From an uncultured candidate division Zixibacteria bacterium (GTDB taxonomy: Bacteria; Zixibacteria; MSB-5A5; UBA10806), in NCBI GenBank assembly GCA_963817915.1, contig CAWFQL010000017.1:1-64000 (forward strand): a stretch of 64,000 bases of DNA, read 5' to 3'. Made by a program: the position numbers and the translations under genes. The notes beneath the pieces were generated by a model. The model had not been told where the DNA came from. It did not search any database and saw only the letters and a list, made by a program, of their open reading frames with translations. This document shows, piece by piece, positions 493 through 60,132 of this stretch (position 1 is its first letter; each line of letters begins with the position of its first letter).

Positions 493-1850
493 ATGTGGAT
501 TATTGGAATAGTATTTTTATTGGCCATAGGTGTTGGGGCACAATTTCTGTGGGAAAAACTTACCGGAGTTCAGCGGCCGGTTACTACATTGCCGGTGAAT
601 GACGTAATACCTTCAGGTTCCCCTCCCCCACCATCACTATAACACCAACCGCCGCCCCAATACTTTGCGAATCTTCACTGTCGCCTCCGCCTCCCCCGCC
701 ACCGCGCTTGTTGCCGGCCAGCGGTTATCCTTCTATCAAGGATGCTTTGCTCGACACGGTAGGGTTGCCTGCCACGACCATAGAGGCTATTGAAAACGGT
801 CGGTATGACGCTGTGCTGCCTATCATCGAGAAAATATCACGGGAACATAAGGCCCTTACAATCATGGAAATATTACCGTTAGCACAGGTAGAAGTTGATG
901 CTCTTGTAGCCACAAAGAAAACAGAACTTATTCAGACTACAGAGATACTGATGATCATATGCTTATTTATGGGTTGCCTGGTACCGGCAAGACGACATTG
1001 GCGCGCATCATGCAGACTGAACTAACTCCTAAATTACGGTTTCAAGCCGAAACTGATCGAGTTGACGCCGCTTCAATTGCAAAACGAAGATAATGTATAC
1101 GACCTCGTTGACCAGATAACTTTCGGGTCGTTGATCTTTATCGATGAGGTGCACTCGATCCCGAAATCTTCTTCTGAGGCCTTATATAATTTGCTCGAGT
1201 ACCAAAAATTTGAAGGCAAGACTGTTCCTAAGCATACTATGATCGGGTGCACGACGGAGGCGGGGACATTGCAAGAAGCCTTTCGCGAAAGATTTCAAAT
1301 AGAAATTGAACTAATGCCATTAAATGAACCCGCCATGTTCAAGGTTGTAAACGATCATGCAAAAGGTGTTAAAGTGGCCGGCTACATTTGAAGAATATGC
1401 GGGACAGACAGATGCCAAAACTTGGTGTCTGCACCTTTGTGCTTTAATAAACCTGATCAAATTTAAGCGGAAGCTATTCAACATGAAGTGGCGCGACGTG
1501 CCGTAGGGATTCCTCGCGTTGGGAAGAATATTATCAAGCATTTGAATGCATTGGCTAAATCATTGGGGCGAGTTTTAACGACGACGATGCGACGAGATGT
1601 TTCGATTTACTCGGTATTGATAACAATGGTTTGCACCGGGCCGATAGAAGAGTAATCAAGACATTATTATTAAGGGATAATAGACCAATGGGAGTCTGCG
1701 GCTTTGGCATCGGCAACAGGCGTGGCCAAAACTGATATCGAGAATATGATTGAGGGCCGATTGGTGCGACTCGGATATATTGAAAGAACCCCCAAGGGCC
1801 GTATTCTAAGTTCAAAATGTATCGGAGCTTATAAATATTTAATGGCATAA
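493..1850 (+). pseudogene. RuvB-like AAA+ ATPase with predicted N-terminal transmembrane helix and Pro-rich linker, broken by several frameshifts (sequence error or decay)
   Basis: AGGAGG then ATG at 493 gives MWIIGIVFLLAIGVGAQFLW. Joining frames by eye gives DHMLIYGLPGTGKTTLARIM (Walker A, ~953-1012), LIFIDEVH (Walker B), IGCTTEAG..FRERF, EVARRAVGIPR, LLGIDNNGL, and LVRLGYIERTPKGR ending at TAA 1848-1850, collinear with RuvB motifs. Confidence 0.75.
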
Positions 1851-2692: not shown

Positions 2693-3748
2693 ATGGCGCT
2701 ATTTAAAAAAGGTGAAAACTGGTACATCGACTACTATCTTGATGGTAGAAGAAGGCGTGAGGCTGTCGGGCCTAATCGTAAAGTAGCCGAACGAGCCTTA
2801 GCTAAGAGGCAGGTTCAAGTAGCCGAGAATCGATTTCTTGATATCGTTCAAAAATCAAAAATCACGTTTGAACGCCTAACTGAAAGCTATCTGAAATACG
2901 CCAGAACCAACAAGATTTCATGGCAGCGTGATTGCCACAGCCTAAAAGCAATGAAATCTACGTTCGAAGGTAAGCTGCTTTATCAGATAACTCCTCTTGT
3001 TATTGAGGGCTATAAAAATGCACGGAGTCAAGTGGTTGCTTCCGCGACAGTGAATAGGGAACTAGCCTGTCTAAAGCATATGTTTACTAAAGCGATTCAA
3101 TGGCAAATGACATCCTCGAATCCTGTCAAAATGGTCAAAATGCTAAAAGAAAACAATGAGCGCCTTAGATATCTGAAAATAGATGAAATCCCCAAATTAA
3201 TGGCTCAGCTGCCTGAACGCCTCAAGCCGATAGTCAATTTTGCGCTTTATACAGGGATGCGTAAAGGAGAGATATTAAATCTTAAATGGGAAGATTTGGA
3301 CTTCGATCAAAAAATCATCTTTGTTAAGAATACGAAAAACGGAGAGATGAGAGAAATTCCCATGGCCGAAGCAGTCTTCAATGAACTTAGATCCTGGCAG
3401 CATCGATCGGCGTATGTCTTTTGCGATTCGGACGGAACGCACATTGTCAGCATCAAGGGTGCTTACAGTAATGCGGTGAAGAGGGCTGGAATTAGTGATT
3501 TTACATTTCACGATTTGAGGCATACTTTCGCCAGTCATTTGGCTATGTCTGGTGTCGATCTTTTGACCATAAAGGAGCTTCTTGGTCATAAGTCGATAAA
3601 CATGACATTGAGGTATGCACATCTAAGTCCGAATCATAAGCGTAAAGCAATTGAATCTCTGAAGTATCTGGATAGACACTTTTTGGACACCAGGCCAAAG
3701 GGTGCCTCCGCGGTGAATACCGTAACATGTTGTGGAGTAAACAATTAG
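2693..3748 (+). CDS. Phage-type tyrosine recombinase/integrase
   Basis: TGMRKGE, KNTKNG, FHDLRHTFAS, LLGH, TLRYAH catalytic motifs; N-terminal arm-binding-like WYIDYY..GRRRR. Confidence 0.95.
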   Translation: MALFKKGENWYIDYYLDGRRRREAVGPNRKVAERALAKRQVQVAENRFLDIVQKSKITFERLTESYLKYARTNKISWQRDCHSLKAMKSTFEGKLLYQITPLVIEGYKNARSQVVASATVNRELACLKHMFTKAIQWQMTSSNPVKMVKMLKENNERLRYLKIDEIPKLMAQLPERLKPIVNFALYTGMRKGEILNLKWEDLDFDQKIIFVKNTKNGEMREIPMAEAVFNELRSWQHRSAYVFCDSDGTHIVSIKGAYSNAVKRAGISDFTFHDLRHTFASHLAMSGVDLLTIKELLGHKSINMTLRYAHLSPNHKRKAIESLKYLDRHFLDTRPKGASAVNTVTCCGVNN

Positions 3749-3754
3749 AGTGCT

Positions 3755-3836
3755 GCGAAAGTGGCGGAACTGGCAGACGCGCTGGACTTAGGATCCAGTC
3801 CCGCAAGGGGTGGGGGTTCAACTCCCCCCTTTCGCA
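3755..3836 (+). tRNA. tRNA-Leu (anticodon TAG), CCA not encoded
   Basis: Acceptor stem GCGAAAG/CTTTCGC+A, D arm GTGGCGGAACTGGCAGACGC, anticodon arm CTGGA-CTTAGGA-TCCAG, variable arm CCCGCAAGGG, T loop GGTTCAACTCC. Confidence 0.95.
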
Positions 3837-3866
3837 TTGAAATCTATAAAGTGTAAAGGATAAAAA

Positions 3867-8599: not shown

Positions 8600-10805
8600 T
8601 TGGTGAAGTTTTTAAGAAATCTTATCTGCTTGTCATTTATAGTCTTAGCTTTTTGCGGTTTTGACGCCAAAGCGTTAGGCTTCGCAGATTCTCAGTCAAA
8701 ATCGACAATTCCAGCTTCCATTCTTCGCAGCCATGGCCCAGATGCCTTCGGATACTATTATTACGATTCCGATGACAGCGCCGCCAACGCCCCCGCATAC
8801 CAATGGATCGAAATATCATCCAGCGGCATCGAAATCGACAGTATGTCCGATGATCATTCAAGGGGACCTTATCCAATCGGATTTAATTTTTCCTATTACG
8901 GCTCGTTAAATTCTAATTTCAGAGTCTGCTCCAACGGTTTTCTGAGTTTCACTTCGGCATCCACCGAATATTTCAATTCGGGGCTTCCTTCAACTCTCGA
9001 TCCCAATAATACTCTGGCTGTTTTCTGGGATGATCTCACTCCTGACTCTTTAAGCCATCTTTACTATTTTTCCAATAACCTTGATACATTGATTGTAGCC
9101 TGGCATAATTATCATCGCTCTGTTCGTGAAGGAAGGTACACATTTGAAGTGATACTGACCGCCAATGGAAATATTACCTACCAATATCAATCGCTTAACG
9201 GCACACTCGATTCCCATACAATTGGTATTGAGAATGTAAACGGCACTATTGGACTCGAATATATTTACAATTTCCAGTCAAATGAAACCGGAAGAGCCAT
9301 ACTGTTCAGCCGCACACCTCCTGATTATGGCCAGCATAATATTCTAATTGTTGCCGCCGATTCGGCTTCGCATTACATCAACGCTATGAGAGCATTTTCC
9401 GATATGGGCAATATTGATTTCTTCGACGCCCATATTGCCACGCCGACCTTATCTCAATTGCAGACTTATGATGCAGTTGTGGTTTGGTCCAATATGCAAT
9501 TTTTCGACGCGACTGCTCTTGGCAATGTCCTGGCCGATTACCTTGACGCCGACGGCGCTGTCGTCCTTCACCAATTCTGCTTCGGAATCGGATGGGCGCT
9601 TAGCGGCAGATTGATGTCGCAATATTCGCCATTCACGACGGGCGAAATATCTACCCATCGAAGGTATCTCGGATCTTACGACCCCGGCCACCCATTGATG
9701 GCGGGTGTCGATTCGCTTTCCGATGTGCTAACCGCATCGGTGCAATTGCGGAATTCACCGATACTGGTAGCATCCTATATCGATGGCACACCCCTGATCG
9801 CATATAATCCGATAAAAAAGTTGGTCGCCATCAATGGTTACGCTGGCGACACCCAGCAATTCACCGGCGATATGTTCAGGCTTTCACATAACGCCATCAA
9901 TTTCGCGATCGATGGCGCGCCACAAATACTAATAGTCGCTTCCGATGATGCCCAAATGGCGCGGCGCGAATTATCGACATTTCCCGATATTCATTCTGTC
10001 CATATATACGATGCCCGTCTATCCACTCCTACCATTCAACTTCTTTCGACCTATAAGGCCGTAGTGGTTTGGGGAAATGAAGCCTTCAGCGATCCGATTG
10101 CGCTCGGAAATAACCTGGCCGATTTTCTCGATGGCGGCACGCGCAGGGGAGTGGTCCTGATGCAATTTTGTTTCGGCCATACGGGCAGCTTGCAGGGTAG
10201 AATCATGAATTCGTATTCGCCATTCACGACTGGAAATATCCCGTATATCACTCGTACATTGGGCTGGTATAATGATGGCAATCCCCTGATGAATAACGTC
10301 AATAATGTCACAGATTATTTTGCGTCCAATGTATCTTTACAGAATGATCGCAGAGGTTGTCGCTATATGGGACGACAATACTCCCTTCGTGGCTTTTAAC
10401 TCCGTCAATAATCTGGTAGCCATTAATGGCTATATCGGCGATAATCGCCAATTCACCGGCGATATGATCACATTGACATACAATGCGATTCTATTCTCCC
10501 AGGATAGATTAAGCTCCGTCGATGAAAGCCCCGCCATCCCATCAGCCTTCGAGCTATATCAAAATTACCCAAATCCGTTCAATCCATCCACAACTATCGC
10601 GTTTGATCTGCCGTCAAAATCCGATGTCTCTATCGAGATACTCAATATCCTCGGCCAAAAGATCGCTGTCATGCCGCAGGGCATACTTGAATCCGGCCAT
10701 CATACGATCACTCTTGATGCCGCATCATTGTCATCCGGTCTCTATTTCTATAAATTATCCTCCGGCAATTATTCCAAAATCAAAAAAATGACCTTGTTGA
10801 AATAA
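8600..10805 (+). CDS. Secreted protein with a duplicated ~200-aa domain and T9SS-type/FlgD-like C-terminal sorting domain; one frameshift near 10345
   Basis: Signal peptide; GPDAFGY..DS start; repeated ILIVA.D...PT...L.TY.AVVVW.N...ALGN.LAD.LD; ORF 10305-10805 completes the second repeat and ends QNYPNPFNP...KKMTLLK. Confidence 0.75.
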
Positions 10806-14875: not shown

Positions 14876-16199
14876 CTATTTCTTCTTCCCCTCCCGTTCC
14901 TTCTTCATCTTCTCCAGCCACCATTCGAGCTTTTCCTTGAGCTTGGCCTTCCATCGCCGCGCTCGGTCGGAATATAAAAACGACTGCCGATCAGCTCATC
15001 CGGCAAACATTCCATATAGGCGAACGCGTCCTCGAATTCGATGGGCATACTTGTATCCTTCGCCATAGCCCCATTCCTTCATATACGATGTTACCGCGTT
15101 GCGGATATTCATCGGCACCGGATAGGCGGGCTTATTCGCAACAGTATCGCGACCTTTTCTAAGGCGCTCATAAGATGGAATTCGATTTGGGCGCGAGCGC
15201 CATATATATCACCGCCTCGGCAATGGCCAATTCACCCTCGGGCGAGCCGAGAAAATGGTATGCGTCTTTGGCGCTGCCAATGATACCTGCAAGGCTCGCG
15301 GATCGGCTAAGCCCGACATCCTCAGCCGCAAACCGGATCACCCGCCGCACGATATATAAGCGGGTCCTCGCCGCCGTCCAGCATCCTCGCCAGCCAGTAC
15401 AGTGACGCGTCGACATCGGATGCCCTCATCGATTTGTGCAACGCCGAAATCAGATTGATAATGCTCCTCGCCGGCCTTATCATAGAGCAATGTCTTCCGC
15501 TGTGCCGCATCGGTGACCAGAGTGAGATCGATATTCTTCTTGCCGATTTGGTCACGCTCTCGGCGCAGAATTCGAGCAGGTTCAAGCTGTTGCGGGCATC
15601 GCCGCCGGAAAGCTGCACGATCTGCGTTAGGGCGTCATCATCCAATGACAGATTAGTCTCGCCCAGCCCGCGCTCTTTGTCCTCAAGCCCGCGCTACACG
15701 ATTGTCTTGAGATGTCAATCGAGAGCGGCTCCAAGAATAAACCCGGCACCGCGACAAGCAGCGCCCCGATCACCTCGAACGATGGATTCTCGGTCGTCGC
15801 GCCGATCAATCGAACAGTCCCATCCTCCACATGCGGCAGGAATGCGTCCTGCTGGGCCTTGTTGAAACGATGAATTTCATCGATAAAAAGAAATGTCCCT
15901 TTCTGACCATATCCTTTGGCCTCGGCGATAATCTGCTTGATCTCCTTGACCCCGATGTTACCGCCGAGAATGGCACAAAACGCGCCTTGGATTTCAGTCG
16001 CGATAATCCGCGCGATCGTAGTCTTGCCGGTGCCCGGCGGACCCCAGAGGATTATCGAGCCAACCCGATCTTCTTCGATAGCCCGACGCAGGGGAGGGCT
16101 TTGCCCCAACAGCTTTTCCTGCCCGACAAATTCATCGAGAGTCTGCGGACGCATCCTATCGGCTAATGGCGATTTGGCGTCGCTTTGAAATAATTCCAT
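14876..16199 (-). CDS. rarA: Replication-associated recombination protein A (MgsA/RarA), multiply frameshifted
   Basis: PLADRMRPQTLDEFVGQ, WGPPGTGKTT, FIDEIHRFNKAQQD, ATTENPSFEV, ISALHKSMR, AEDVGL, G.PEGE, APKSN across consecutive fragments. Confidence 0.85.
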
Positions 16200-16255
16200 A
16201 ATATAAAAATAGCTCTGCGCGATTATTATGTCAATGAAACTATAATAAGCCCCAA

Positions 16256-16321
16256 GTGCGGTCGAGTCTCCGCACCCGACCGATATTCATCTGGGCGGCA
16301 GGCGTCCCACCTGCCCCTTCC
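16256..16321. repeat. REP-like family A copy plus GGCAGGCGTCCCACCTGCC palindrome
   Basis: GTGCGGTCGAGTCTCCGCACCCGACCGA; near-identical copies at 33875, 34020, 56382, 56999. Confidence 0.85.
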
Positions 16322-45951: not shown

Positions 45952-47346
45952 ATGACAGATCCCAAAGAAAAATCTCTGGTCTTCGAACCGCCTCTTGTCG
46001 ATGGCAACCCGTCATTCGCCGCTATTACGGAGAAGATCAGTCGAATCACCGAAGGCAAGCCTCCATCAGGATGGTTGATCGCCTTTGGCTTTGCGGTATC
46101 GTTGGCGCTGATGTTTCTCGGCGTTATTGCGTATCTGATTTCCAAAGGCATAGGAATATGGGGTCTTCAAATCCCCGTGGCCTGGGGCTGGGATATCACT
46201 AATTTCGTATTTTGGGTCGGTATAGGACATGCCGGGACATTGATATCGGCAATTCTCTTTTTGCTCCGCCAGCGCTGGCGCACTTCGATAAATCGTTTTT
46301 CCGAGGCCATGACATTATTCGCGATTATCTGCGCTTTGATCTTTCCTACAGTGCATGTCGGGCGAATATGGGTCATATATTTCTTCGCGCCTGTGCCCAA
46401 TCAAATGGGAATGTGGCCTAATTTCCGAAGCCCCCTGCTCTGGGACTTTTTTGCGGTCGGCACCTATTTTACCTGCTCGTTGCTATTCTGGTATGTCGGT
46501 CTGATTCCTGATCTGGCAACATTTCGTGATAGAGCAAAAAGCAGAATCAAAAAAATCATCTTCGGTATTCTGGCTATCGGCTGGCGCAATGGTAATCGTC
46601 AATGGAAACATTACGAACTTGCCTATCTGATTCTGGCCGGCATTTCCACGCCGTTGGTTTTGTCGGTTCATAGTATTGTCAGCACCGATTTTGCGGTCAG
46701 CATCTTGCCCGGCTGGCATTCGACTATCTTCCCGCCATATTTTGTCGCCGGAGCGATTTTTTCCGGATTCGCGATGGTCGTGACTCTCTCTATCCTCGCC
46801 AGAAAAGTATTCGGTTTGGAAGATTTAATTACAATTCGTCATTTTGATAAAATGAATAAAATAATATTGGTCACCGGCTCCATGGTGGCCTACTCCTACG
46901 CCACAGAAATATTTATCGCCTGGTATAGCGGCAATCTATATGAACGATACATGACTATGAATCGTATGGTCGGCCCTTATGCCTGGGCATTCTGGACTAT
47001 GATAACCTGCAATGTAGTTGTCCCTCAATTTTTCTGGTTCAAAAAATTCCGCACCAGCATTCCGGCCATGCTGATTATCTGCATTTTAGTCAATGTTGGC
47101 ATGTGGTTCGAACGATTCGTGATCATTGTCACTTCTCTTTCACGCGATTTCATTCCCTCGAGCTGGGCCTATTTTACGCCCACCATTTTCGATATCGCCA
47201 TGCTCGTGGGATCATTTGGACTTTTCTTTTCGCTATTTTTGCTTTTCGTGCGATACCTGCCGTTGATAGCCATGTCCGAGGTCAAGGGCGTCCTGCCTCA
47301 AGCCAATCCTCATATCAGTCATCATGAAAAGGTTTCTAATGGCTAA
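45952..47346 (+). CDS. actC: Alternative complex III quinol-binding NrfD-family subunit
   Basis: [56 protein letters not shown]. Confidence 0.95.
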
Positions 47347-47880
47347 AAAAAGAATAAAAGAGATTATACTGCTGGCCGAATTCGATACCCCCGCGTCCTT
47401 AATGCAGGCGGCTGAGAAGACGCGTGATGCTGGATACAAAAAATTCGATTGCCATTCGCCGTTCCCGATTCATGGTATGGATGATGCCATGGGAGTCAAA
47501 CGATCGCCGCTTGGATACATTGTCGGTATATTCGCGTTCATTGGGCTTTCTGGCGGCATTCTCCTGCAATGGTGGACAAGCACAGTGGATTATCCTCTCG
47601 TGATCTCCGGCAAGCCGTTTTTCAGCTATCAGGCGTACCTGCCGGTAACATTCGCCTTCGCTGTGCTTTTTTCGGCGATTGCTTCGTTCTATGCATGATG
47701 GCATTAAATAAGCTTCCCCGTTATAATCATCCTCTCTTTAATTCGGAACGTTTCAAAAAAGCGACCGACGATCGGTTCTTCATAAGTATCGAGGCCGACT
47801 CTGCTAATTTTGACATCAATAAGGCCATGTCATTCATGGAATCAATCGGTGGAAAAAATATCGAGGTGCTGGAGGGATGA
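47339..47880 (+). CDS. actD: Alternative complex III subunit D (DUF3341), frameshift near 47690
   Basis: [24 protein letters not shown]; continues LPRYNHPLF...ATDDRFF. Confidence 0.9.
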
Positions 47881-48500
47881 TGGTTAAGGGTTATAGATTC
47901 ATTATTCTACCTGCGGTTTCTTCGATTGTTATTTTGATATCAAGCTGCTACCGTGGACGGCCCTCCGAAGACCCGCCGATTCATCCAAATCAGGATATGA
48001 TGTACCAGCCAAAATATATGCCGCAATCCCAAAGCAATTTCTTCGCGGATAGCGCCACTATGCGGCCATCGGTGCCGGGTACAGTTGCCAGGGAAGAGCT
48101 TCGAGCCGATGATGCCTATTATCGCGGAATGAATAAAGACAGCAGTTTTGTCAAAATTTCCCCGGTGCCCGTAACTTTATTGGTTCTGAAAAGGGGACAG
48201 GAACGATACAATATATACTGCTCTGTTTGTCATGGACGAGTCGGCGATGGCAAAGGGATAATGGTCGATCGCGGATATATACCTCCGCCAAGCTATCATA
48301 CCGATCGTTTAAGGAATATGCCCGATGGCCAGATATTCGATGATATCTCCAACGGTGTCCGCAATATGCCCGCCTATCGCAATCAGATTCCGGTTTCAGA
48401 TCGCTGGGCAATAGTCGCCTATCTGAGGGCCCTGCAGAGAAGCCAGAACGCGGGTGAAAATGATGTCCCCCTGGAGCAAAGGCAGCAGCTAAGGCAGTAA
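47877..48500 (+). CDS. actE: Alternative complex III monoheme cytochrome c lipoprotein
   Basis: Lipobox SSC, DM.YQPKY, GTVAR, YCSVCHG, MPAY, DRWAIVAY. Confidence 0.9.
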   Translation: MMVKGYRFIILPAVSSIVILISSCYRGRPSEDPPIHPNQDMMYQPKYMPQSQSNFFADSATMRPSVPGTVAREELRADDAYYRGMNKDSSFVKISPVPVTLLVLKRGQERYNIYCSVCHGRVGDGKGIMVDRGYIPPPSYHTDRLRNMPDGQIFDDISNGVRNMPAYRNQIPVSDRWAIVAYLRALQRSQNAGENDVPLEQRQQLRQ

Positions 48501-48502
48501 TA

Positions 48503-49693
48503 ATGGCGATGAATATAGATAATAAGACATATCGAATAACCGACAGTAGCAGTCTCGAAAAGAAATTTCTGATAGTTGGTATTATCGGTCTTGCTTTGAG
48601 CGCCATCGGGCTATTTACCGACAGCAAACAATTCTACTTTTCATATTTGGTTTCATTCATCTTCTGGCTGACAATCGGCCTCGGCGCTTTATTCCTCGTA
48701 ATGATGCATCACCTTACCAATTCCACTTGGAGCATTGTCTTGCGCCGCATCATGGAAAATGTCACGATGGTTTTACCTTACGGTGCATATATTTTTCTTC
48801 CCGATTATTTTGGGAGTTACGAGCATGTATCATTGGAGCCACGCTGATATAGTCGCGGGAGACAACGTGCTGAAGGCAAAGTCAGGTTACTTCAGTCAAT
48901 TGTTTTTTATTATGCGGACATTATTCTATCTTGAAACCTGGGCGTATTTATCGAAAGCACTTTTCAAGGTCTCAATCAAACAGGATAGCGGTCATGACGA
49001 TTCTCAAATCAAGAGAATGAGAAGAACCAGTGCCATCGGCATGGTGTTATTCGCTTTAACTCTCACCTTCGCTTCATTCGATTGGATCATGTCGCTCGAT
49101 GCTCATTGGTACTCGACCATATTCGGGGTCTATATCTTCTCCGGCGCGACATCTGTCAGTACTGGCATTTCTAATTCTTGCAGGTTATCTATCTCCAAAA
49201 TAATAATATTCTGAAGAATGAAATCACGGTCGAACATTATCACGATCTCGGAAAACTGACTTTCACATTCGTGATATTCTGGACCTATATCGCGTTCTCG
49301 CAGTATTTTCTTATCTGGTACGGCAATATTCCCGAAGAGACAGTCTGGTATCATCAGCGATGGGACAATTCATTCAAGTATCTCAGCCTGTTGCTTGTAT
49401 TCGGCAATTTCGTAATACCATTTGTGGTGATGATCGCTCGCGGCGGCAAACGGAATCTGACTACCTTGAAAATAATGGCCGTCTGGCTTCTTTTCATGCA
49501 TTGGGTCGATATCTTTTGGCTTATTATGCCGGCATTCAAGCAAAACGGCATCCTTATTTCCTGGATGGATTTCACTACCATGATGGGCACCGGCGGGCTG
49601 TTTTTGTGGTTTTTCTGGAGGAAGATGAAATCCAATCCGATTGTCCCTGTGAACGATCCCAGGCTGGACGATTCGATAAAAATAATCAGCTGA
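48503..49693 (+). CDS. actF: Alternative complex III subunit F, two frameshifts
   Basis: Three consecutive fragments with W..VLRR, FDWIMSLD.HWYSTIFG, HDLGKL, QYFLIWYGNIPEET. Confidence 0.85.
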
Positions 49694-49699
49694 GCCCAA

Positions 49700-50053
49700 A
49701 TGATGACTGAAGAGAAAGACAATAAAAAAGCGCTTTACGAAAAAGAAGAACTGAATGTCGCCAGAATTATTGGAATCGGTCTTCTTAGCGTCGTATTGCT
49801 GGCCGCATCCGTCTTTTCTCTCAATGAATTCTTCTTTGCCGAAAAAGAACAGCAGATCAGCGATGTTGTCCTGAAACCCGAATCCACTCCTTTCAGGGAA
49901 ATGCGCGCCCGTGAGGATGAAATCCTGAATTCCTACAAAATTATAGACTCGGATAAAAAAATCTATCAGATTCCCATCGAACAAGCCATGAAGCTGATGG
50001 CCGATGAGGCTTATCAGGCGAAATTGAAATCATCAGAAACCAAAAAACAGTAG
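49700..50053 (+). CDS. Single-TM protein, probable ActG-like subunit
   Basis: One TM helix, L.SY...D......IPIEQAM; position between actF and SCO. Confidence 0.6.
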   Translation: MMTEEKDNKKALYEKEELNVARIIGIGLLSVVLLAASVFSLNEFFFAEKEQQISDVVLKPESTPFREMRAREDEILNSYKIIDSDKKIYQIPIEQAMKLMADEAYQAKLKSSETKKQ

Positions 50054-50071
50054 GATAATTGATATACACTA

Positions 50072-50962
50072 TTGATTCAGACTCCCTTTAATATGAATAA
50101 TAATAGATTCCAATTCTTTTTTAAATTCCTCCATCCGAGATTTATCGGAATTCACTTCGCAATGCTGATTATTGTATTAAGTTCAACAGCTTTTTCGCAA
50201 GTCGTAAAGGACAGCGACCCTGAGCTGAAAGGTATCGATGTTATCGAACACCTCGGCAAGAAAATCCCGCTCGACCTATATTTCACTAATGATTCCGGCC
50301 AAAGAGTCCAATTGGGTCAGTACTTCAATCATGGTAAACCGGTCATCATGGTTTTGGCCTACTACACATGCCCCATGCTTTGCACTCTGGTTTTGAATAA
50401 CATCGCCCAAGATATTACTCACTTGCCATTCACTCCTGGCAAGGAATACCAAATACTTACACTGAGTATCGATCCCCGCGATACTCCCGATATCGCCTCT
50501 GCCAAGAAGAAAAACCTGCTGAATAGTATCAACAAACCTGAATATGCCGATGGCTGGACATTATTCACCAGCGAAGAAAGCCAGATCAAACCGCTGGCGG
50601 AATCTCTCGGCTTTCAATATTATTTTGACAGCAAAACTTCGCAATACGCCCACCCGACCGTGATTTTCATTCTAATGCCAGATGGCGAAATATCGCGTTA
50701 TCTCTACGGAGTCGATTTCAATCCGCGCGATCTGCGGGTCGCCCTTTTAGAAGCTGCTGATGGCAAAATAGGCACTACCATAGATAGGATTATTCTGTAT
50801 TGCTATCATTATGATCCGCTGGCCAAAGGGTATGTCCTTTTCGCAACAAATATCATGAAGCTCGGCGGTCTGATTACCCTTATAATCTTCGGGATCATCC
50901 TTGGGTTCTATTGGCGAGCCGAAAAAAGAAAAAAATTAATTAAAACAACGGATATGAAATAG
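50072..50962 (+). CDS. SCO family copper chaperone
   Basis: YYTCPMLC, YAHP, ISRYLYG, CYHYDP, C-terminal TM. Confidence 0.9.
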   Translation: MIQTPFNMNNNRFQFFFKFLHPRFIGIHFAMLIIVLSSTAFSQVVKDSDPELKGIDVIEHLGKKIPLDLYFTNDSGQRVQLGQYFNHGKPVIMVLAYYTCPMLCTLVLNNIAQDITHLPFTPGKEYQILTLSIDPRDTPDIASAKKKNLLNSINKPEYADGWTLFTSEESQIKPLAESLGFQYYFDSKTSQYAHPTVIFILMPDGEISRYLYGVDFNPRDLRVALLEAADGKIGTTIDRIILYCYHYDPLAKGYVLFATNIMKLGGLITLIIFGIILGFYWRAEKRKKLIKTTDMK

Positions 50963-50975
50963 AGAGAAATTTCTG

Positions 50976-51923
50976 ATGGATACTACCGGCACATTATTCC
51001 TACCGCCCAGCAGCTCGACAATTTCGGGTCATGTCGATGCCCTATTCTATTTCATCTTGTATGTCTCGATTTTTTTCTTTGCCATTGTAGTAGGATTGGC
51101 CATCTATTTCATGATAAAATATCGCAGGAAAGGCGCCGCCGAAGCGACTTCCGGACCAGATCACAGCCTAAAATTGGAAATAATCTGGACTGTAATACCA
51201 ATCATAATTGTCCTGATTATTTTTTTCTGGGGCTTTAAAATCTATCTGGATCAGGTAGTTGTCCCGAAAGACGCAATGGAAATCAAGGTCACCGGCAAGA
51301 AATGGATGTGGGTATTCGATTATCCCAACGGCGTAAACAGCGTCAATGATCTCTATGTCCCGGCCGGTAAGCCCGTGAAGCTCTTGATGTCTTCCACCGA
51401 TGTCATCCACGGTTTCTATGTCCCCGATTTTAGAATTAAGATGGATGTCCTTCCCAATCGCTACAGCATAGTCTGGTTTAACGCTCCGTCGCCCGGACAG
51501 CATCAAATCTTTTGCACGCAATATTGCGGCAAGGGCCATTCTGAGATGTGGGGAACCGTTCACGTCTTGAGCGAACGTGAATATGCCGAATGGCTCGAGC
51601 AATCATCGATGGCCGGAGGCGCAGGTATGAAGCCCGAGGATTTCGGCAAAAATCTCTATCAAACCAAGCGATGTATCACCTGCCATAGTATCGATGGCAC
51701 TGCCAATGTCGGACCCAGTTTCTTGGGGATTTTCGGAAATCCTGTCCCACTCGAAGGCGGAAATAAGGTTATTGTCGATGAAAATTATATAAGAGAATCA
51801 ATCCTCGATCCTCAGGCGAAAATCGCGCTTGGCTATCAGCCTGTAATGCCTACTTATCAGGGAATTCTAAAAGACAAAGACATCGACGGCCTGATTGCAT
51901 ATATTAAATCATTGCATAAATAA
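50976..51923 (+). CDS. coxB: Cytochrome c oxidase subunit II with fused cytochrome c (caa3 type)
   Basis: DVIHGF, CTQYCGKGHSEM (CuA), CITCH. Confidence 0.95.
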   Translation: MDTTGTLFLPPSSSTISGHVDALFYFILYVSIFFFAIVVGLAIYFMIKYRRKGAAEATSGPDHSLKLEIIWTVIPIIIVLIIFFWGFKIYLDQVVVPKDAMEIKVTGKKWMWVFDYPNGVNSVNDLYVPAGKPVKLLMSSTDVIHGFYVPDFRIKMDVLPNRYSIVWFNAPSPGQHQIFCTQYCGKGHSEMWGTVHVLSEREYAEWLEQSSMAGGAGMKPEDFGKNLYQTKRCITCHSIDGTANVGPSFLGIFGNPVPLEGGNKVIVDENYIRESILDPQAKIALGYQPVMPTYQGILKDKDIDGLIAYIKSLHK

Positions 51924-51926
51924 GAG

Positions 51927-53549
51927 GTGATGATGGAAACGCTGCCGGAACGAAATTATCTGAATCAGACCAAAGGATGGAAATCCTGGCTGCTGACTCT
52001 GGATCATAAACGAATCGCGATTCTATATATGATTTCAGTATCGGCCTCGTTTATTCTCGGCGGGTTGCTGGCTATGTTGATTCGCCTCGAATTGCTTCAC
52101 CCGTTCGGTCAGCATATAATGAAGGCTCAAACCTACAATGAAGTTTTTACGCTTCACGGCGCCGTGATGATCTTCCTCTTTATCATCCCCGGAATTCCAG
52201 CGATCCTCGGCAATTTTCTTCTGCCGTTGATGATTGGCTCAAAGGATGTCGCGTTTCCTCGGCTGAATCTGGCAAGCTGGTATATATATATGGTTGGCGC
52301 ATTGATGGCCATCTACGCCATGTTTTCAGGATCGGTCGATACCGGATGGACATTCTATACGCCCTATAGCACTACCACCGCCGGTGCGGTCATCCCGATG
52401 ACAGTTGCGGTATTCATACTCGGTTTCTCATCGATCTTCACCGGTCTGAATTTCATAGTGACTATCCACAAGCTTCGCGCTCCCGGAATGGCCTGGTTCA
52501 ATTTGCCGTTATTCGTCTGGGGATTATATGCTACTGCCATTATCCAAGTCCTTGCGACACCGGTATTGGGGATAACATTGATACTACTGATTCTCGAACG
52601 ACTGGCATCAATCGGCATATTCGATCCGGCAATGGGGGGAGACCCGGTGCTATTTCAGCATTTCTTCTGGTTCTATTCGCATCCGGCAGTCTATATCATG
52701 ATTCTCCCCGGCATGGGTATTATCAGCGAATTGATCCCGGTATTTTCCCACAAAAAAATATTCGGCTATAAAGCAATCGCCTATTCGAGTTTCGGAATTG
52801 CCTTCATCAGCTTTCTTGTCTGGGGACATCACATGTTCGTGGCCGGACAATCCGAGCTCGCCGATCTGATTTTCTCATTCCTGACATTCATAGTAGCCAT
52901 ACCTTCGGGCATCAAAGTCTTCAACTGGATTTCTACAATGTATAAGGGCTCCATCAGCCTCCAGACTCCAATGCTTTATGCCTTCGCCTTTCTATTTCTT
53001 TTTTCGATTGGTGGATTGACTGGAATGTTTCTCGGCGCGCTGGCTACCGATATTCATCTGCACGATACCTACTTCGTCGTGGCACATTTCCATTATGTGA
53101 TGATGGGTGGGACTGTCATGGCGATGATTGGAGGTATTCATTACTGGTGGCCCAAAATCTGGGGACGAATGTACAGCGAATACTGGGCGAGGATTTCCTG
53201 GGCTCTGGTGTTTGTCGGTTTCAATATTACATTTTTCACTCAATTTATTTTGGGTTCAAAGGGAATGCCGCGCCGGTCATATAATTATCTTCAACAATAT
53301 CACCCGTTGCATGCCTTTTCGTCATTCGGCTCCTGGATACTCGGACTTGGTTTCCTGATAATGTTCATATATCTGATTTATGCGATCTATAAAGGCAAAC
53401 CGGCGGGCAATAATCCCTGGGGCGGAATGACCCTCGAATGGACAACCACATCTCCGCCGCCGACCGAGAATTTCGCTGAAATTCCGACAATCACTCACGG
53501 CCCCTATGATTTCGATGCCGCACCAAATCCAAACAAACGGGAATCATAA
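51927..53549 (+). CDS. coxA: Cytochrome c oxidase subunit I, A2 type
   Basis: [39 protein letters not shown]. Confidence 0.97.
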
Positions 53550-54200
53550 TTGACTAACCTTAGCGAAAATCATCCCGATCATCTGGCGCATCATTTCGGC
53601 GATATGCCCCAGCAGCGCGATGCCGCCAAGATGGGTATGTGGATATTTATCGTAACCGAGATTCTGCTTTTCGGCGGTTTGTTTGTCGCCTATGCGATCT
53701 ATCGCGCTTGGAATCCCGATATGTTCTACAATGCCCACAAACAATTGAATCTCACTTTAGGCACAATTAATACCATAGTCCTGATTACAAGCTCACTGAC
53801 AATGGCGCTTGCTATTCGATCCATGCAATTGAATCGAAAAAAACAGACGATTTGGTTTCTGATCACCACTCTATCGTTGGCAGCAGTGTTTTTGGTAATA
53901 AAATACTTTGAATACGAACATAAATTCCATCTGGGGCAGCTGCCAGGCAAATTTTATACATTCACGGGAGTCGCGGGGAATAATCCCCATATCTTCTTCA
54001 CAATATATTTCGCCATGACCGGCCTGCATGCGATTCATATTATCGGCGGCATGTCGGTTATCGGATGGATTCTTAGGCGGACTATTCGCAATGATTTTTC
54101 GGATCAATATTATACGCCGATCGAATTAACCGGTCTGTATTGGCATCTTGTCGATCTTATCTGGATTTATCTATTTCCGCTTTTATATCTGGTAGGTTAA
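53550..54200 (+). CDS. coxC: Cytochrome c oxidase subunit III
   Basis: GMWIFIVTE..LFGGLF, TGLHAIH, YWHLVDLIW. Confidence 0.95.
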   Translation: MTNLSENHPDHLAHHFGDMPQQRDAAKMGMWIFIVTEILLFGGLFVAYAIYRAWNPDMFYNAHKQLNLTLGTINTIVLITSSLTMALAIRSMQLNRKKQTIWFLITTLSLAAVFLVIKYFEYEHKFHLGQLPGKFYTFTGVAGNNPHIFFTIYFAMTGLHAIHIIGGMSVIGWILRRTIRNDFSDQYYTPIELTGLYWHLVDLIWIYLFPLLYLVG

Positions 54201-54204
54201 TGAT

Positions 54205-54588
54205 ATGGAAAATACTGCAAATAAATCTCAAATTCACATAACTCCTCTTAAGACATATATCATTGTCGCCTGCGCCTTATTTGTATTTACAGGAATAACT
54301 GTTGGCGTATCGCTGATACCTCTCGGAGGCTGGAATGCCGTTGTCGCCGTTCTAATTGCGAGTATTAAGGCAACACTCGTCGGCCTTTTCTTTATGCATC
54401 TGCTCTATGATAAGAAAATATACCTGGTAATCGTGATGGTCGCGGTTGTCATATTATTTATATTCCTGACTCTTACCATGTTCGATACGGTGCGCCGCGG
54501 CGATCTCTATCAAATCAAATCCGCCCCCATAGAACAACAATCGAAAATGTATAATAAATCTGTTCAGGACACGGCCAGGCGCTACTGA
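54205..54588 (+). CDS. coxD: Cytochrome c oxidase subunit IV (prokaryotic)
   Basis: IA.IKA.LV..FFMHL.YD. Confidence 0.85.
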   Translation: MENTANKSQIHITPLKTYIIVACALFVFTGITVGVSLIPLGGWNAVVAVLIASIKATLVGLFFMHLLYDKKIYLVIVMVAVVILFIFLTLTMFDTVRRGDLYQIKSAPIEQQSKMYNKSVQDTARRY

Positions 54589-54623
54589 GCAAAAATAATC
54601 TTAATCATATATAGGGGATTGTA

Positions 54624-55582
54624 ATGGAGATAAAAAATGAATGTATAGTGCGTTTTCGGCGAATCGCGTTGATAACCACTATTTCGACCTATATTCTGAT
54701 ATTCCTTGGTGGTCTCGTCAGAGTCTCAGGGGCCGGACTCGGATGTCCTGACTGGCCTAAATGCTTCGGCCGTTGGTTCCCGCCCACCAATGTCAGTCAG
54801 CTGCCGCCCGATATGGACCCGACATTATTCAATTTCACTTAGCCTGGATCGAATATGTGAATCGGCTTGCGGGCATTATCGTCGGGCTGATGATCTTGTT
54901 TGTTGCCATTATCGCGATAGTAAGATTTCGCAAAATAAAGGCTATCATGTGGCCATCTATCGGGGCCGCTATACTGGTCGCTGTCCAGGGATGGCAGGGC
55001 GGTCAACTCGTGTCATCGAAATTAGCTCCTATAATAGTCTCGCTCCACGCCGGATTGGCATTGATTATAGTCAGCCTTCTGGTCTTTGTTACTCGAAACG
55101 CCTACGCCCTTGAAAATCGTGCCAACGAGCAGAAAGATTCATTCCCGGCCGGCTTTGGTTTCAAGATATCGATACTCTGGCTGTTCAGCATTGTTCAGAT
55201 AGTACTTGGCACTAATGTCCGTTCAACTCTCGAAGAGCTGGCAGCGAAATTCCCATTACTCGATGGCCTCCAGCTTTTGCGGATGGTCGGTGTCGCCGAT
55301 TATCTGCACATGGTTTTGGGACTATTAATAGTAGGTTACGCGGGGCATATCGGACATACTATATTGAAAAACCGCAAATCGCTCTCACGGCATACCGCGC
55401 AGGTCGCGTTGGGCTTGGATATTGTTGCCGCCGCGCAATTAATAGTGGGTCTCTTGCTGGTCCTTGTCGGCATCCCGGAATTGACTCAGGTGTTCCATCT
55501 CTGGCTCGCAAGTTTATTTGTCGGAATATTGCTGATTATTTACGCCAAAACCAGACAGACCGAAGGGGGGATCAATGCGTAA
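54624..55582 (+). CDS. ctaA: Heme A synthase (COX15/CtaA), frameshift near 54835
   Basis: [19 protein letters not shown] then WIEYVNR, QG.QG, V.LH. Confidence 0.85.
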
Positions 55583-56180
55583 TAATGGCGGATTCATAAA
55601 GCTGATTATTCTCTTTGCCCTGATGGCATTAGTCCTGGCAGTCGTGGCGGTCTTCGTAATAAGGCAGGCCGACGCTTCCCGTTCAAATATACCTGAATTG
55701 GGTAATATAACTCAATTCACGTTCACTGATCAGAACGGTCAGCCATTCGGATCGGACACAATGAAGGGCAAAATAAATATTGTCGATTTCTTTTTCACCA
55801 CCTGTCCCAATGTCTGTCCGGTCATGACCCGGCGAATGGCAGACCTCTATGAAAAATTCGCGGACTCCGATAAAATTCATTTTGTTTCTGTGACCACCGA
55901 CCCAACCAACGATTCCCTGAAGGCATTGCGCAATTACGCTTCAGCTTATGGGGCCAATGATGGCCGTTGGTCGTTTATTCGAGGCACGACAGAGGAAACC
56001 GCCTCGCTATCGGAGACCTGCTTCAAATTATCAGCAGATCAATTGCCGTTAGTGCATAGTGTCATGTTTGTCTTAGTCGATCAAAATGGTGTCATTCGTG
56101 GGTACTATGACAGCAACGACGAAGCCAGCCTCGAGCTTCTGAGCAAACATATTGTGATCTTGGCCAAGAAGCTTTCATGA
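55575..56180 (+). CDS. SCO family protein (second copy)
   Basis: FFFTTCPNVCP, DP.ND, HS..FVLVD..G.IRGYY. Confidence 0.9.
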   Translation: MRNNGGFIKLIILFALMALVLAVVAVFVIRQADASRSNIPELGNITQFTFTDQNGQPFGSDTMKGKINIVDFFFTTCPNVCPVMTRRMADLYEKFADSDKIHFVSVTTDPTNDSLKALRNYASAYGANDGRWSFIRGTTEETASLSETCFKLSADQLPLVHSVMFVLVDQNGVIRGYYDSNDEASLELLSKHIVILAKKLS

Positions 56181-56192
56181 CATTTATTCTAA

Positions 56193-56443
56193 TGCGGTCG
56201 GGGGCCGTCAGGCCGGCGACCGAATGAGCCGAAGTCGGGTCAGACGCCCGACATCACTGATAATATTAGCTAAGAGACTAGCCATGCCATCCATGACATG
56301 CCCTCAATCAATGCCACGGTCAATTTCGAGTCAGCGGCGACCTGCCCGCGTCGTCAGGCAATCCTGTCCGGACGCATTCCCGTGCGGTCAGGTCTCCGCA
56401 CCCGACCGAAAACCGATGTCGGGTCAGGCGACCCGACATCACA
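56193..56443. repeat. REP cluster containing a degenerate duplicate of the DUF420 gene start
   Basis: ~56193-56344 resembles ~56383-56527 (REP doublet + TTAGCTAAGAGA + ATCCATGACATGCCCTCAATCAA). Confidence 0.8.
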
Positions 56444-56467
56444 GACAAAATTAGCTAAGAGATTTTC

Positions 56468-56881
56468 ATGACAATCCATGACATGCCCTCAATCAACGCC
56501 ACGCTGAATTTCATCAGCGGTGTCCTGATATTCCTCGGCCGAATGCAGATCAAGCGCGGCCTCCAGCAACGGCACAAACGATTCATGCTCTCGGCGTTGG
56601 CCATCACAGTTTTATTTCTAATCAGCTATACCATCTATCACAGCCAGGTCGGCTCGGTGCCATATCCGCGTCACGATTGGACTCGCCCGCTCTATTTCGC
56701 GATTCTGATTCCGCACGTAATCTTCGCGGCTCTAAATGTGCCATTCGCCATCTGGGCGGTCTATTTCGCCTTGAAGGGCAAATTCGACCGGCACAAACGA
56801 CTGGTTCGCTGGGTCTGGCCGGTATGGATGTTTGTCTCTATCAGTGGAATCGCAGTCTATATAATGCTCTATCGATTGTAG
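56468..56881 (+). CDS. DUF420 (CtaM-like) membrane protein
   Basis: P.INA.LN, HK.FM, FL.SY..YH, Y..IL..H, HKR..R..WP.W..VS..G. Confidence 0.85.
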   Translation: MTIHDMPSINATLNFISGVLIFLGRMQIKRGLQQRHKRFMLSALAITVLFLISYTIYHSQVGSVPYPRHDWTRPLYFAILIPHVIFAALNVPFAIWAVYFALKGKFDRHKRLVRWVWPVWMFVSISGIAVYIMLYRL

Positions 56882-56897
56882 AATTTTCCTGCGAATC

Positions 56898-57060
56898 GTA
56901 GGGCAGGAGTCGATAGACTCCTGCCATCATATTCCCCTTCATCGGTCATTGCGAATCCGCCGCAGGCGGATTAGGCAATCTGAAGGCTGATTTTTCCCGT
57001 GCGGTCGGGTCTCCGCACCCGACCGATACGCGATGTCGGGTCGGGGGACCCGACATCACA
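56898..57060. repeat. Cluster of REP-like palindromes
   Basis: GTAGGGCAGGAGTCGATAGACTCCTGCC; GTCATTGCGAATCCGCCGCAGGCGGATTAGGCAATC; family A at 56999; GATGTCGGGTCGGGGGACCCGACATC. Confidence 0.85.
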
Positions 57061-57068
57061 AATAATAT

Positions 57069-58247
57069 CTACCTCAGCAGCGTCACCTTCGAGGTTACTC
57101 TATGATTCGTCCCATTTGCAACCACGAAATACAAGCCCGATGCCGCTTCATTCCCCCGCACATCAGTGCCATCCCACAAAATCTCCGCTGCGGGCGCAAA
57201 TGATTTCACCTTCTGCCCTGTGATACTGTAAATCGCAATATCCTTTAATTCGCTAATATCGCCAGCATAGACAATCCTCGTCTGAGCATTGAATGGATTC
57301 GGATAAGCAGAGAGGGAGATACTTGACGGAGTCAAGGGATTTTCATTTTCAATGCCGGTTATCAAATCGGACACACAAACGAAATTTGCTGGTTCGCACC
57401 ACTGCCCATAAGCCTCAAAATGCGTGAAGTACATTTTTTCTCCATTTAGTGAAAATGATGGAGAAAAGCTTTGGCCGATATGTAAATCGCAGTAGGGGTC
57501 GGGGGAAGAAAAATTAATGTTTCCATTCAAATGAATGGGCGCTTGCCACAATCCATTGACAAAATTACAGACAACCATCGGGGCAGGAACATAGGGAGCC
57601 CCACCCTCACTAAAATACAATCTCAAACCATCGGGTGAAATTTGAGGGATTGGATTTCTATTGTCCGGATCATTTATTATGTCTGGCAAAACGGCTGGCG
57701 TTGTGAATTCACCATTAATAACGTCCGATGCCATTATTACGCTATTTCGTAAAAAAAATAATTTTGTGCCGTCTCGCGTCATTGATGGTGAGGATTCACT
57801 TTCCGATGAATTTATTTCCGGACCTAAATTCCATGGATCCGACCATTCACTATTACTTAGATTAGGTCTAGCGGCCCAGATGTCACTTCCGCCATAACCA
57901 CCATCCATAGCAGATGAAAAATAAATTATCGTATCAACTGCATCGTAGAGAAAAAGTGTTCCAACATCCATATTTTGTATGTAGTACGGTAATGGAACTG
58001 GACATTGCCATTCATTATCAGTGAATGTCGAGTAATAAATGTTGGTTTCGCCCGTAGACTTCACGAACATCAATGAATCATTTGAACCGATGGTCAAGAT
58101 TGAATATCCATAGAGTGCTTGGTTGTCGCAATTTTCTGGATTAAAATCAATGCCTGCCGCCGGCCCCCAATCATCCTGCGCCATCGTGATTAATGGAGCA
58201 TAGACTATCGCAATAACAATCAATGCCGAAATAATCAATCTTTTCAT
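57069..58247 (-). CDS. Secreted PD40-type beta-propeller protein with C-terminal sorting domain
   Basis: Signal peptide from MKRLII; GGYGGSDIW, NLGPEINS, P.ISPDG..LYF; YPNPFN...WDG.D..G...ASGLY. Confidence 0.75.
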   Translation of the reverse strand: MKRLIISALIVIAIVYAPLITMAQDDWGPAAGIDFNPENCDNQALYGYSILTIGSNDSLMFVKSTGETNIYYSTFTDNEWQCPVPLPYYIQNMDVGTLFLYDAVDTIIYFSSAMDGGYGGSDIWAARPNLSNSEWSDPWNLGPEINSSESESSPSMTRDGTKLFFLRNSVIMASDVINGEFTTPAVLPDIINDPDNRNPIPQISPDGLRLYFSEGGAPYVPAPMVVCNFVNGLWQAPIHLNGNINFSSPDPYCDLHIGQSFSPSFSLNGEKMYFTHFEAYGQWCEPANFVCVSDLITGIENENPLTPSSISLSAYPNPFNAQTRIVYAGDISELKDIAIYSITGQKVKSFAPAAEILWDGTDVRGNEAASGLYFVVANGTNHRVTSKVTLLR

Positions 58248-58342
58248 GTCAAACCCCCGTCTAAAGAGTCTATTTGATGCATATAATATATGACTATGGA
58301 TATTATTATCCAAGAAAAAAATGCTCAATTTCGAGAAATTCA

Positions 58343-58372
58343 GTGCGTCGTCAGGAACCCCTTCCTGACGAC
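58343..58372 (+). repeat. REP-like palindrome
   Basis: GTGCGTCGTCAGGAACCCCTTCCTGACGAC. Confidence 0.7.
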
Positions 58373-58398
58373 TAGATGGATAATTTATGGAATTGGCT

Positions 58399-59547: not shown

Positions 59548-60132
59548 TCCCTAAGGCCAGGGCCATTCGCCGTAAGAATTTAATCTTAATTAAATTCAAG
59601 AAGCCAGCCTTTCGCTTGGTTAAGCCAAAAATCAAGACTCTATTAAATATAGTGCTAATTGGGTTATTGACAAGACAATATTTCCTGCGATTCTCAATTT
59701 AATCGTCTGAAGCGGGCTCGCCGTGACCATATCTTTCCTGAATTTGAAAGTCATTTCCTCTGTGAAATGACATCCTCATTTTAGCTAAGCGAAATAACTT
59801 GTCTCCGTTTTATCATATATTATTGTAACATTCGCTTCAACGGCTTGCATTAATGCTTGACAAATCGAATACGATTTTATTTTATTGATTTTAGCTAATG
59901 TAAACTATCATTCTTGAAAAGTAGGATGATGCTCAAAACGAAATTCAATACTGATTTTCGCCAAACTACTGAAGTGAACAAGAAACATCTTTTATATCGT
60001 AGCTTTAAAAAACATAATAATCTAAAAATCAATAGCCCGGATAGCCGGCCCCAATTCCCAAAATCGCATGAAATCAGGCGGAATTATTATTGACAGGCCA
60101 TTTGGTTGAATAACCCAAAAAGGAGATCGTTT

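Follow-up and report, generated by a model that had tools for sequence, protein, structure and literature searches.

A RuvB-derived ATPase family with its N-terminal segment relocated into the lid and, in most members, a membrane helix: a candidate RuvA-independent DNA motor in an integrative island

Introduction

Whether a RuvB-like ATPase that is encoded in pieces behind a membrane helix, on an integrative element, can act as a membrane-tethered DNA motor without RuvA is the question raised by this locus. According to excerpts of two papers (PMC9477746, PMC10272136), RuvB pulls DNA only because RuvA, acting as the fulcrum, holds it via the PS1 hairpin; the arginines of the RuvB head grip the DNA, as an excerpt of the first describes (PMC9477746). 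The window (the whole stretch analyzed here, 64,000 nucleotides) is the start of contig C17 of an uncultured Zixibacteria genome, which comprises 3.33 Mb in 22 contigs.

A frameshifted RuvB-derived gene in a tRNA-Leu island

Positions 493-1850 of the window make up one RuvB-derived gene with at least seven frame changes in total. The features of the locus are as follows (position, strand, description).

3-453, +: two unexplained island ORFs, 3-335 (open at the contig end) and about 326-453
482-487, +: ribosome-binding site AGGAGG, the sole good start for the focal gene
493-642, +: N-terminal piece, frame 1, with one TM helix (~499-549) and the start of a Pro-rich linker
603-950, +: linker, frame 3, Pro-rich and then helical
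953-1028, +: Walker A piece, frame 2, not preceded by the RuvB N-terminal segment
971-994, +: Walker A, GLPGTGKT, frame 2
1035-1373, +: ATPase core, frame 3, including lid helix 1
1137-1154, +: Walker B, FIDEVH, frame 3
about 1200-1232, +: shortened PS1 loop, frame 3
1251-1295, +: TTEAG..RERF, with sensor 1 at 1251-1256 and the arginine finger at 1290-1292
1375-1446, +: moved segment, frame 1, with the RuvB N-terminal 'P..F.EY.GQ' motif and helix alpha0, in pre-sensor-2 position
1467-1580, +: remainder of the lid, frame 3, with the sensor-2 arginine at 1515-1517
1494-1517, +: RRAVGIPR, within the lid remainder
1586-1693, +: lid end and start of the winged-helix head, frame 2
1698-1850, +: winged-helix head, frame 3, with DNA-binding arginines (E.R.L, RTPKGR) and a stop at 1848-1850
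1785-1802, +: RTPKGR, frame 3
2409-2609, +: excisionase-like HTH_17 gene (xis), intact, E 1.5e-8
2693-3748, +: tyrosine integrase gene (int), intact, 351 aa, E 1.6e-39
3676-3794, +: right attachment site, a 79-base arm and a 40-base core (the 5' half of tRNA-Leu)
3754-3837, +: tRNA-Leu(TAG), the integration target, followed by host tig-clpP-clpX

The original prediction had rebuilt a RuvB-type protein from these fragments, and all of its motifs were found in place. Pieces of the gene matched RuvB_N (E 5.5e-7 and 3.2e-9) and RuvB_C (E 3.2e-10), and the RuvB lid weakly (E 0.072). The frameshift-aware alignment that had been proposed as a check gave 53-57% identity to four intact relatives over ~293 residues. 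Between 956 and 1841 the frame changes at least five times, and the joined reading meets no stop; two further frame changes were required upstream, near 620-640 and near 950. Joined over the indel near 950, the end of the linker gave the 'E-[IV]-L-x-H' lead-in to Walker A of the family, while the linker itself (603-950) had no family or locus match. The TM ORF (493-642) had a peak hydropathy of 2.49 in a 17-residue window, and its layout of TM helix and linker matched that of the intact relatives P0004 and P0154, which suggests that the TM helix is fused to the ATPase in the window copy as well.

The predicted integrative element was recovered as a tRNA-Leu island with integrase, xis and attachment repeats. 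An identical copy of 3676-3794 lies 3.7 kb from the C18 end, at C18:111117-111235, and a further copy of just the 40-base core lies at C18:92465-92504. Since the attachment repeats recur on C18, the island spans the C18 end, an unassembled gap and the window up to 3794. The C18 part of the island is low in GC (0.35-0.37). Its left end (C18:111546-114853; L009:16547-19833) holds four low-GC ORFs, encoding a DpdC-like protein (PADLOC E 2.5e-29), a TPR protein and two proteins without a family match. In the window part, the ORF at 3-335 had no match in Pfam, PHROG or PADLOC, and the small ORF at about 326-453 had none in PHROGs. A second, integrase-less island (C18:92465-111235; L009, L010) lies in tandem at the same tRNA-Leu site and carries host-like genes, including two Ser/Thr kinase-TPR paralogues, a sigma54 activator and secreted repeat proteins; both C18 sites have a near-identical arm after the 40-base core.

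Considering the number of frame changes, the family could be real while the window copy is a degenerating pseudogene, left over from a phage and riding in a defence-type island as dead cargo. The focal gene has ~5 frame changes per kb (at least seven in 1.35 kb), ~50 times the background of 3 per 30.7 kb (~0.1 per kb) in conserved genes elsewhere in the genome, a background taken from 27 rows that include repeats of ruvB and two antisense frames. The adjoining xis and int are intact, and a DNA search detected the focal DNA in none of 40 related genomes. On the other hand, the joined frame has no stop and keeps all motifs, and the end branch of the copy measures 0.42 compared with 0.30 for the intact sister P0153. 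The gene also lies within the first 2 kb of the contig, and frameshift patches occur in the core genes yebC and rarA and in a host-like gene near the island (C18:106.9-108.2 kb; at least three frame changes). Two indicators carried no weight: ORF coverage at the contig end (0.63 versus 0.78) was too noisy to use, and a promoter scan was at chance level (9 versus 8.1). On balance, we find it considerably more probable that the cell has an intact gene, disrupted in the assembled sequence by long-read indels, and regard decay into a pseudogene as unlikely, if by no means negligible. Elsewhere in the window, rarA/mgsA (15311-16286) is spread over several frames and a secreted protein gene (8600-10805) seems split near 10300-10400, both probably by assembly indels.

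The N-terminal segment of RuvB has moved into the lid

The fragments had been described as collinear with RuvB. This description was wrong, because the protein is internally permuted: the N-terminal nucleotide-binding segment of RuvB is now in the lid, before sensor 2, a conclusion for which the sequence evidence is firm. In the closest relatives, the 'RP..L.EY.GQ' motif and helix alpha0 are not before Walker A, and the matching segment is found ~30 residues past the arginine finger, after the first lid helix and ahead of the sensor-2 helix. The relocated stretch is ~30 residues long.

A profile of the N-terminal segment was built from 143 unpermuted proteins (232 candidates, with near-identical canonical ones thinned). 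It matched at the lid position in 26 of the 27 family entries, 22 of them at E<0.01 and four weakly, the single miss being an incomplete entry, and before Walker A in none (0/27), where canonical RuvB has RP..EY.GQ and alpha0. The 27 entries include two duplicates, leaving 25 distinct ones, with P0017 and L101 close. In the window, the profile matched at 1378-1422 (E 6.9e-5), with no match before Walker A. Among 152 search matches, the segment was N-terminal in 121, in the lid in 17 and undetected in 14; none had both copies, and a duplication as the source of the lid insert was therefore rejected. When the family profile was aligned to host RuvB, it matched in three out-of-order pieces, with the insert on residues 23-52. 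Between the moved GQ and sensor 2 lie 39-44 residues in all 24 full entries (24/24), too regular a spacing for a loose insertion. One other candidate for the N-terminal motif, 'IRPLQSWKYY' near 850, was rejected, as the profile had no match there.

Membrane helix, PS1 hairpin and active site

The original prediction of a TM helix and linker fused to a RuvB-like ATPase is matched by intact homologues, namely P0004, P0154 and 13 more. When a 17-residue hydropathy of at least 2.0 was required, a TM helix opened 15 of the 23 distinct entries that contain Walker A; one was borderline and seven had none, so family members can do without the tether. The five-member clade of the window copy (support 100/99) contains both forms: P0004 and P0154 have the TM helix and Pro-rich linker, and P0003 and P0153 do not show this layout, P0153 lying on a 1,174-base contig. 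Several members have short uncharged N-ends and basic residues after the TM helix.

The stretch before sensor 1 had been predicted to be about 12 residues shorter than in RuvB. In the window, the interval from Walker B to sensor 1 is 30 residues, compared with 42 in host RuvB, and because it sits in one unbroken frame, the 12-residue shortening is real. As a hallmark or definition of the family it was rejected: the interval ranges from 30 to 54 residues in the 25 family entries, and many unpermuted RuvB-like proteins of the phage type have a short hairpin too. Within the family, the RuvA-binding hairpin is free in length and has lost the sequence of RuvB.

Like RuvB (PF05496, PF05491, TIGR00635; 1hqc, 7pbl), the family has an AAA+ core, lid helices and a winged-helix head with DNA-binding arginines, and Walker A/B, sensor 1, arginine finger, sensor 2 and head arginines are all kept. 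Among the rows of the 25 entries that cover each site, the Walker A K was conserved in 23/23, the Walker B DE in 24/24, the arginine finger in 25/25 and the sensor-2 R in 23/24, and the three head arginines were kept in 20/23, 19/23 and 19/23. Most members have lost the cis arginine of RuvB ('RP') where the segment now sits, and in 20/24 Gln replaces the trans signature Glu; with these changes, hydrolysis may be altered.

RuvB was the best match of the family in Pfam, NCBIfam, Foldseek and VIA. However, P0004 and P0152 scored 177.5 and 167.2 against the curated RuvB equivalog cut-off of 282, which host RuvB passed with 465.6. The N-terminal segment in the lid, the mostly present TM helix, the free-length PS1 hairpin and the lack of ruvA or ruvC in the flanks searched (see below) further set the family apart from RuvB. 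It is thus a RuvB variant, RuvB-derived and not a RuvB ortholog by the features tested.

The predicted fold displaces the lid

The permuted member P0004 was folded by AlphaFold2 with 21 family rows (pLDDT 89.6, pTM 0.78). In Foldseek, RuvB was top-ranked at an rmsd of 14-15 A, and in VIA the model aligned to RuvB 1hqc with Z 17.9 and 12.0 A over 255 residues. Most other AAA+ rows in VIA aligned just 114-149 residues, and core plus lid were matched at 3.4-4.9 A over 196-221 residues by five MCM chains, RavA and BchI (MCM 6xtx 4.0 A/212, RavA 3nbx 4.2 A/221, BchI 1g8p 3.6 A/213). The unpermuted protein P0066, which has a TM helix and the core signature of the family, was used as the control. Folded by the same method, it aligned to 1hqc with Z 29.2 and an rmsd of 2.4 A across 306 residues; its top 50 contained no row for MCM, RavA or BchI. 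The contrast is between one permuted monomer model and one unpermuted model.

In the P0004 model, the lid does not lie on its own core (12 A from 1hqc, compared with 2.4 A in the control). The moved helix likely acts as a pre-sensor-2 insert that swings lid and head off their own core, as far as the models can tell. Helix 136-145 is continuous in the P0004 model and has no inserted hairpin, so there is no helix-2 insert. A search of BFVD gave no low-rmsd full-length match in the top 50, and a three-copy complex prediction scored 0.28, with the mark at 0.42, and weighs neither for nor against a ring.

According to an excerpt of a review of AAA+ inserts (PMC7973254), MCM, RavA and BchI carry a pre-sensor-2 insert and form domain-swapped rings in which sensor 2 acts in trans. 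The model likewise places a helix between the first two lid helices, where it repositions the lid, resembling clade 7 (MCM, RavA/MoxR, BchI). But identity to clade 7 is just 12-18%, the family has no helix-2 insert and keeps a RuvB head, and its inserted helix is the relocated alpha0 of RuvB itself; the family is not a clade 7 member. Because it nests among RuvB-like proteins, the clade-7-like architecture would be convergent.

Relatives, distribution and origin

When the longest focal piece was compared with 1.84 billion representatives, relatives of 38-46% identity came out on top. A word-index protein search with a 121-aa core piece gave no match, and a search with the region of P0003 returned three known members only. 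An intact member was present in three of 285 genomes of the phylum. Pattern scans of metagenomes and genomes gave a family member in four of 238 loci among the matches listed, the rest being mostly chance.

Many uncultured phages in IMG/VR encode unpermuted short-hairpin RuvB-like ATPases (L013-L037, L336; contigs mostly of 26-298 kb), and three of these loci (L018-L020) have an N-terminal TM helix. Their neighbours include tyrosine recombinases, rIIA/rIIB, DNA ligase, a UvsX-like gene and an actin-like partition protein. Short or variable hairpins are shared by the permuted family and the unpermuted phage-type proteins (L013-L037, ESM Atlas viral clusters, P0066, P0043), and so is an N-terminal TM helix in some of them (L018-L020, P0066, P0043). 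Neighbours common to both are a phrog_388 nucleotidyltransferase, a 3D-domain protein and a tyrosine recombinase. Unlike the permuted family, the unpermuted proteins retain the order and fold of RuvB.

In a 112-row FastTree, calculated with the moved segment cut out and with P0034, fragments and duplicates excluded, the 22 permuted rows and P0066 formed one group (SH 95) among short-hairpin phage-type RuvB-like proteins. A 41-row IQ-TREE supported the group with P0066 and P0043 at 89/86, with an open base, and no bootstrap tree had the permuted rows alone. The AU test did not reject a single permuted clade (p 0.178). A single origin of the permutation is therefore compatible with the AU test and lacks bootstrap support, being neither shown nor rejected. 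P0066 plausibly represents the ancestral, pre-permutation state, with a reversal as the alternative.

The viral company of the family bears on another reading, in which the tethered ring is an import motor that draws DNA from the membrane into the cytoplasm, for example during second-stage genome entry of a large phage. The viral share of the nearest ESM Atlas clusters is 67-100%, the contigs of three members (P0005, P0152 and P0010) are 63, 99 and 120 kb long, and the unpermuted TM relatives lie on viral contigs of 26-102 kb. The short uncharged N-ends and the basic residues after the helix fit a cytoplasmic motor, and RuvB pulls DNA off its RuvA-facing side, the side where the tether sits (excerpt of PMC9477746). 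But the linker is long and flexible, and therefore the orientation of the ring need not be fixed. Moreover, no recognizable channel or virion gene is a neighbour, and no permuted member was found among IMG/VR contigs in profile scans, cultured phages or plasmids (records listed); the best 30 of 34 matches in cultured phage records and the best 30 of 61 in plasmid records appear unpermuted, as judged from match length, with identity at most 33%. We consider an import motor improbable.

Searches of the main texts of the open full-text literature turned up no account of a RuvB family that is permuted, TM-fused or encoded by phages, and PHROGs had no RuvB-named family for P0004 or L018. The family is apparently undescribed.

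Gene neighbourhoods and the missing RuvA

The absence of ruvA and ruvC beside the gene had been noted in the original prediction. It extends to the members with readable flanks: with one host query each (E 0.01 for RuvA), neither RuvA nor RuvC turned up at the 22 viral loci or at the 10 family or own loci, a search that remote partners could escape. No ruvA was found within 10 kb of the IMG/VR phage RuvB-like genes, and neither ruvA nor ruvC was found at the members in G243, G056 and G045, the only three besides the window copy with long flanks, or in the assembled parts of the island. A ruvA could lie in the assembly gap that the island spans, because the contig end cuts off its left part. 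TIGR00084 found the host ruvA; Pfam RuvA_N missed even this gene, so its silence elsewhere proves little. The host has a normal yebC-ruvC-ruvA-ruvB run on contig C11, separate from the focal gene; a canonical ruvAB elsewhere in the genome had been proposed as a check. A frameshifted second canonical ruvB and valS lie at the high-GC end of C10 (about 96900-103481), which, with the first 3 kb of C6, has a GC content of 0.69 and 0.63, respectively, versus 0.45, and probably is chimeric contamination.

These results bear on the view that the protein is an ordinary branch-migration motor working with host RuvA or with an unrecognized junction-binding partner, the permutation being neutral and the displaced lid a modelling artefact. 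RuvB is still the best match in sequence and structure, the other hosts checked also carry canonical ruvB (G041 and G042 shown), and the RuvA search used the one host query. Against this, the RuvA-binding hairpin has lost the RuvB sequence at 30-54 residues, the unpermuted control folds canonically by the same method, and the GQ-to-sensor-2 spacing is constant in 24/24. We give an ordinary motor a small chance of being right.

The G243 member lies in a tRNA-Ser island with an integrase, two HTH genes, a primase-like gene and many small ORFs, which also carries two further tyrosine recombinases and a defence block. This block (G243:C54, about 46000-62500; L315) encodes PLD, helicase, PC4, a MORC-type ATPase, a nucleoside deoxyribosyltransferase-like protein, PAPS reductase, AAA, DUF4007 and a CBASS-type SAVED-SMODS-ThiF-JAB run. 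The G056 member adjoins a nucleotidyltransferase fragment, a primase-like gene and a type III restriction system, with a DUF262-like gene nearby. The G045 member (G045:C3:448163-449089; L317:158-1309, minus strand) stands alone among host genes, next to lepA, and is possibly domesticated; instead of a TM helix it has a Cys-rich N-terminus with two CxxC pairs, a region uncalled by Pfam.

Such neighbours invite a defence or exclusion role, in which a membrane ring would grab incoming phage DNA or disturb host RuvAB as cargo of defence islands. The G243 member lies beside CBASS-type, DUF4007 and MORC-type genes, the G056 member beside the restriction system and DUF262-like gene, and the DpdC-like gene sits at the other end of the island in the window genome. 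However, the G243 member sits amid a series of small phage-like genes that use the other strand from the defence block, no partner gene is constant, and PADLOC 2.0 gave no full-length defence match for the focal family, with partial P-loop matches that were weak (best E 6.4e-8). A defence role thus appears quite unlikely.

Tyrosine recombinases were found within 10 kb at 7 of 23 phage RuvB-like loci compared with 2 of 43 other phage loci, counts in which three of the seven positives had been used in profile building, three loci are kin and the controls were unmatched. A tyrosine recombinase is beside the gene in the window and at G243, and absent at G056 and G045. The association is weak.

Discussion

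Taken together, we lean slightly towards a RuvA-independent, membrane-tethered dsDNA translocase that derives from phage-type RuvB-like proteins, has an FtsK-like job and is encoded by an intact gene here. In the ring, each lid would sit on the ATP site of the neighbouring subunit, a domain swap that would place sensor 2 in trans, as extrapolated from the monomer model. Such a swap would lock neighbouring subunits together, and the ring could assemble without loading by RuvA. It would pull duplex DNA by the lever mechanism of RuvB, with the membrane tether supplying the fulcrum that RuvA provides for RuvB. The membrane would be the simplest fulcrum, because grip and active site are kept, the hairpin is freed and a membrane helix is gained.

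The likeliest job would be FtsK-like, with the motor shifting the DNA of the element itself relative to the membrane, to unite recombination sites or to drive junctions made by the tyrosine recombinases of the element. The movement could serve excision, multimer resolution or segregation. FtsK acts with Xer tyrosine recombinases, and FtsK, SpoIIIE and TraB combine a RecA-fold motor with multi-pass membrane domains. The family resembles them in its layout of anchor, long linker, ring motor and winged helix, a likeness that would be a functional analogy only: it has the AAA+ fold of RuvB and one membrane helix, and no RecA-fold translocase domain.

As to its history, a phage-derived RuvB may have swapped RuvA for an anchor and then re-invented the MCM-type domain-swapped ring by moving its N-terminal helix, a scenario to which we assign somewhat less than an even chance. 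If true, it would be a second, traceable origin of the pre-sensor-2 architecture, with P0066 and the permuted members as a natural before-and-after pair, and the family would represent a new class of dsDNA pump in mobile elements, membrane-tethered and encoded by one gene, an AAA+ counterpart of FtsK.

An excerpt of the review of AAA+ inserts calls the effects of lid repositioning by a pre-sensor-2 insert 'not well-explored' (PMC7973254). The family offers relatives with and without this repositioning, separated by one traceable move of ~30 residues, and cis and trans wiring of sensor 2 would become comparable within one motor. It also tests the claim, made in an excerpt of PMC9477746, that RuvB needs a fulcrum, since a membrane helix appears to stand in for RuvA. 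Uncultured phages and islands seem to hold a large pool of such RuvA-less RuvB-like motors, which pipelines label simply 'RuvB'.

As a separate observation on the hairpin, the permuted members P0036, P0089 and P0148 carry a PS1 loop of 51-54 residues, compared with 42 in RuvB, and may bind a new partner.
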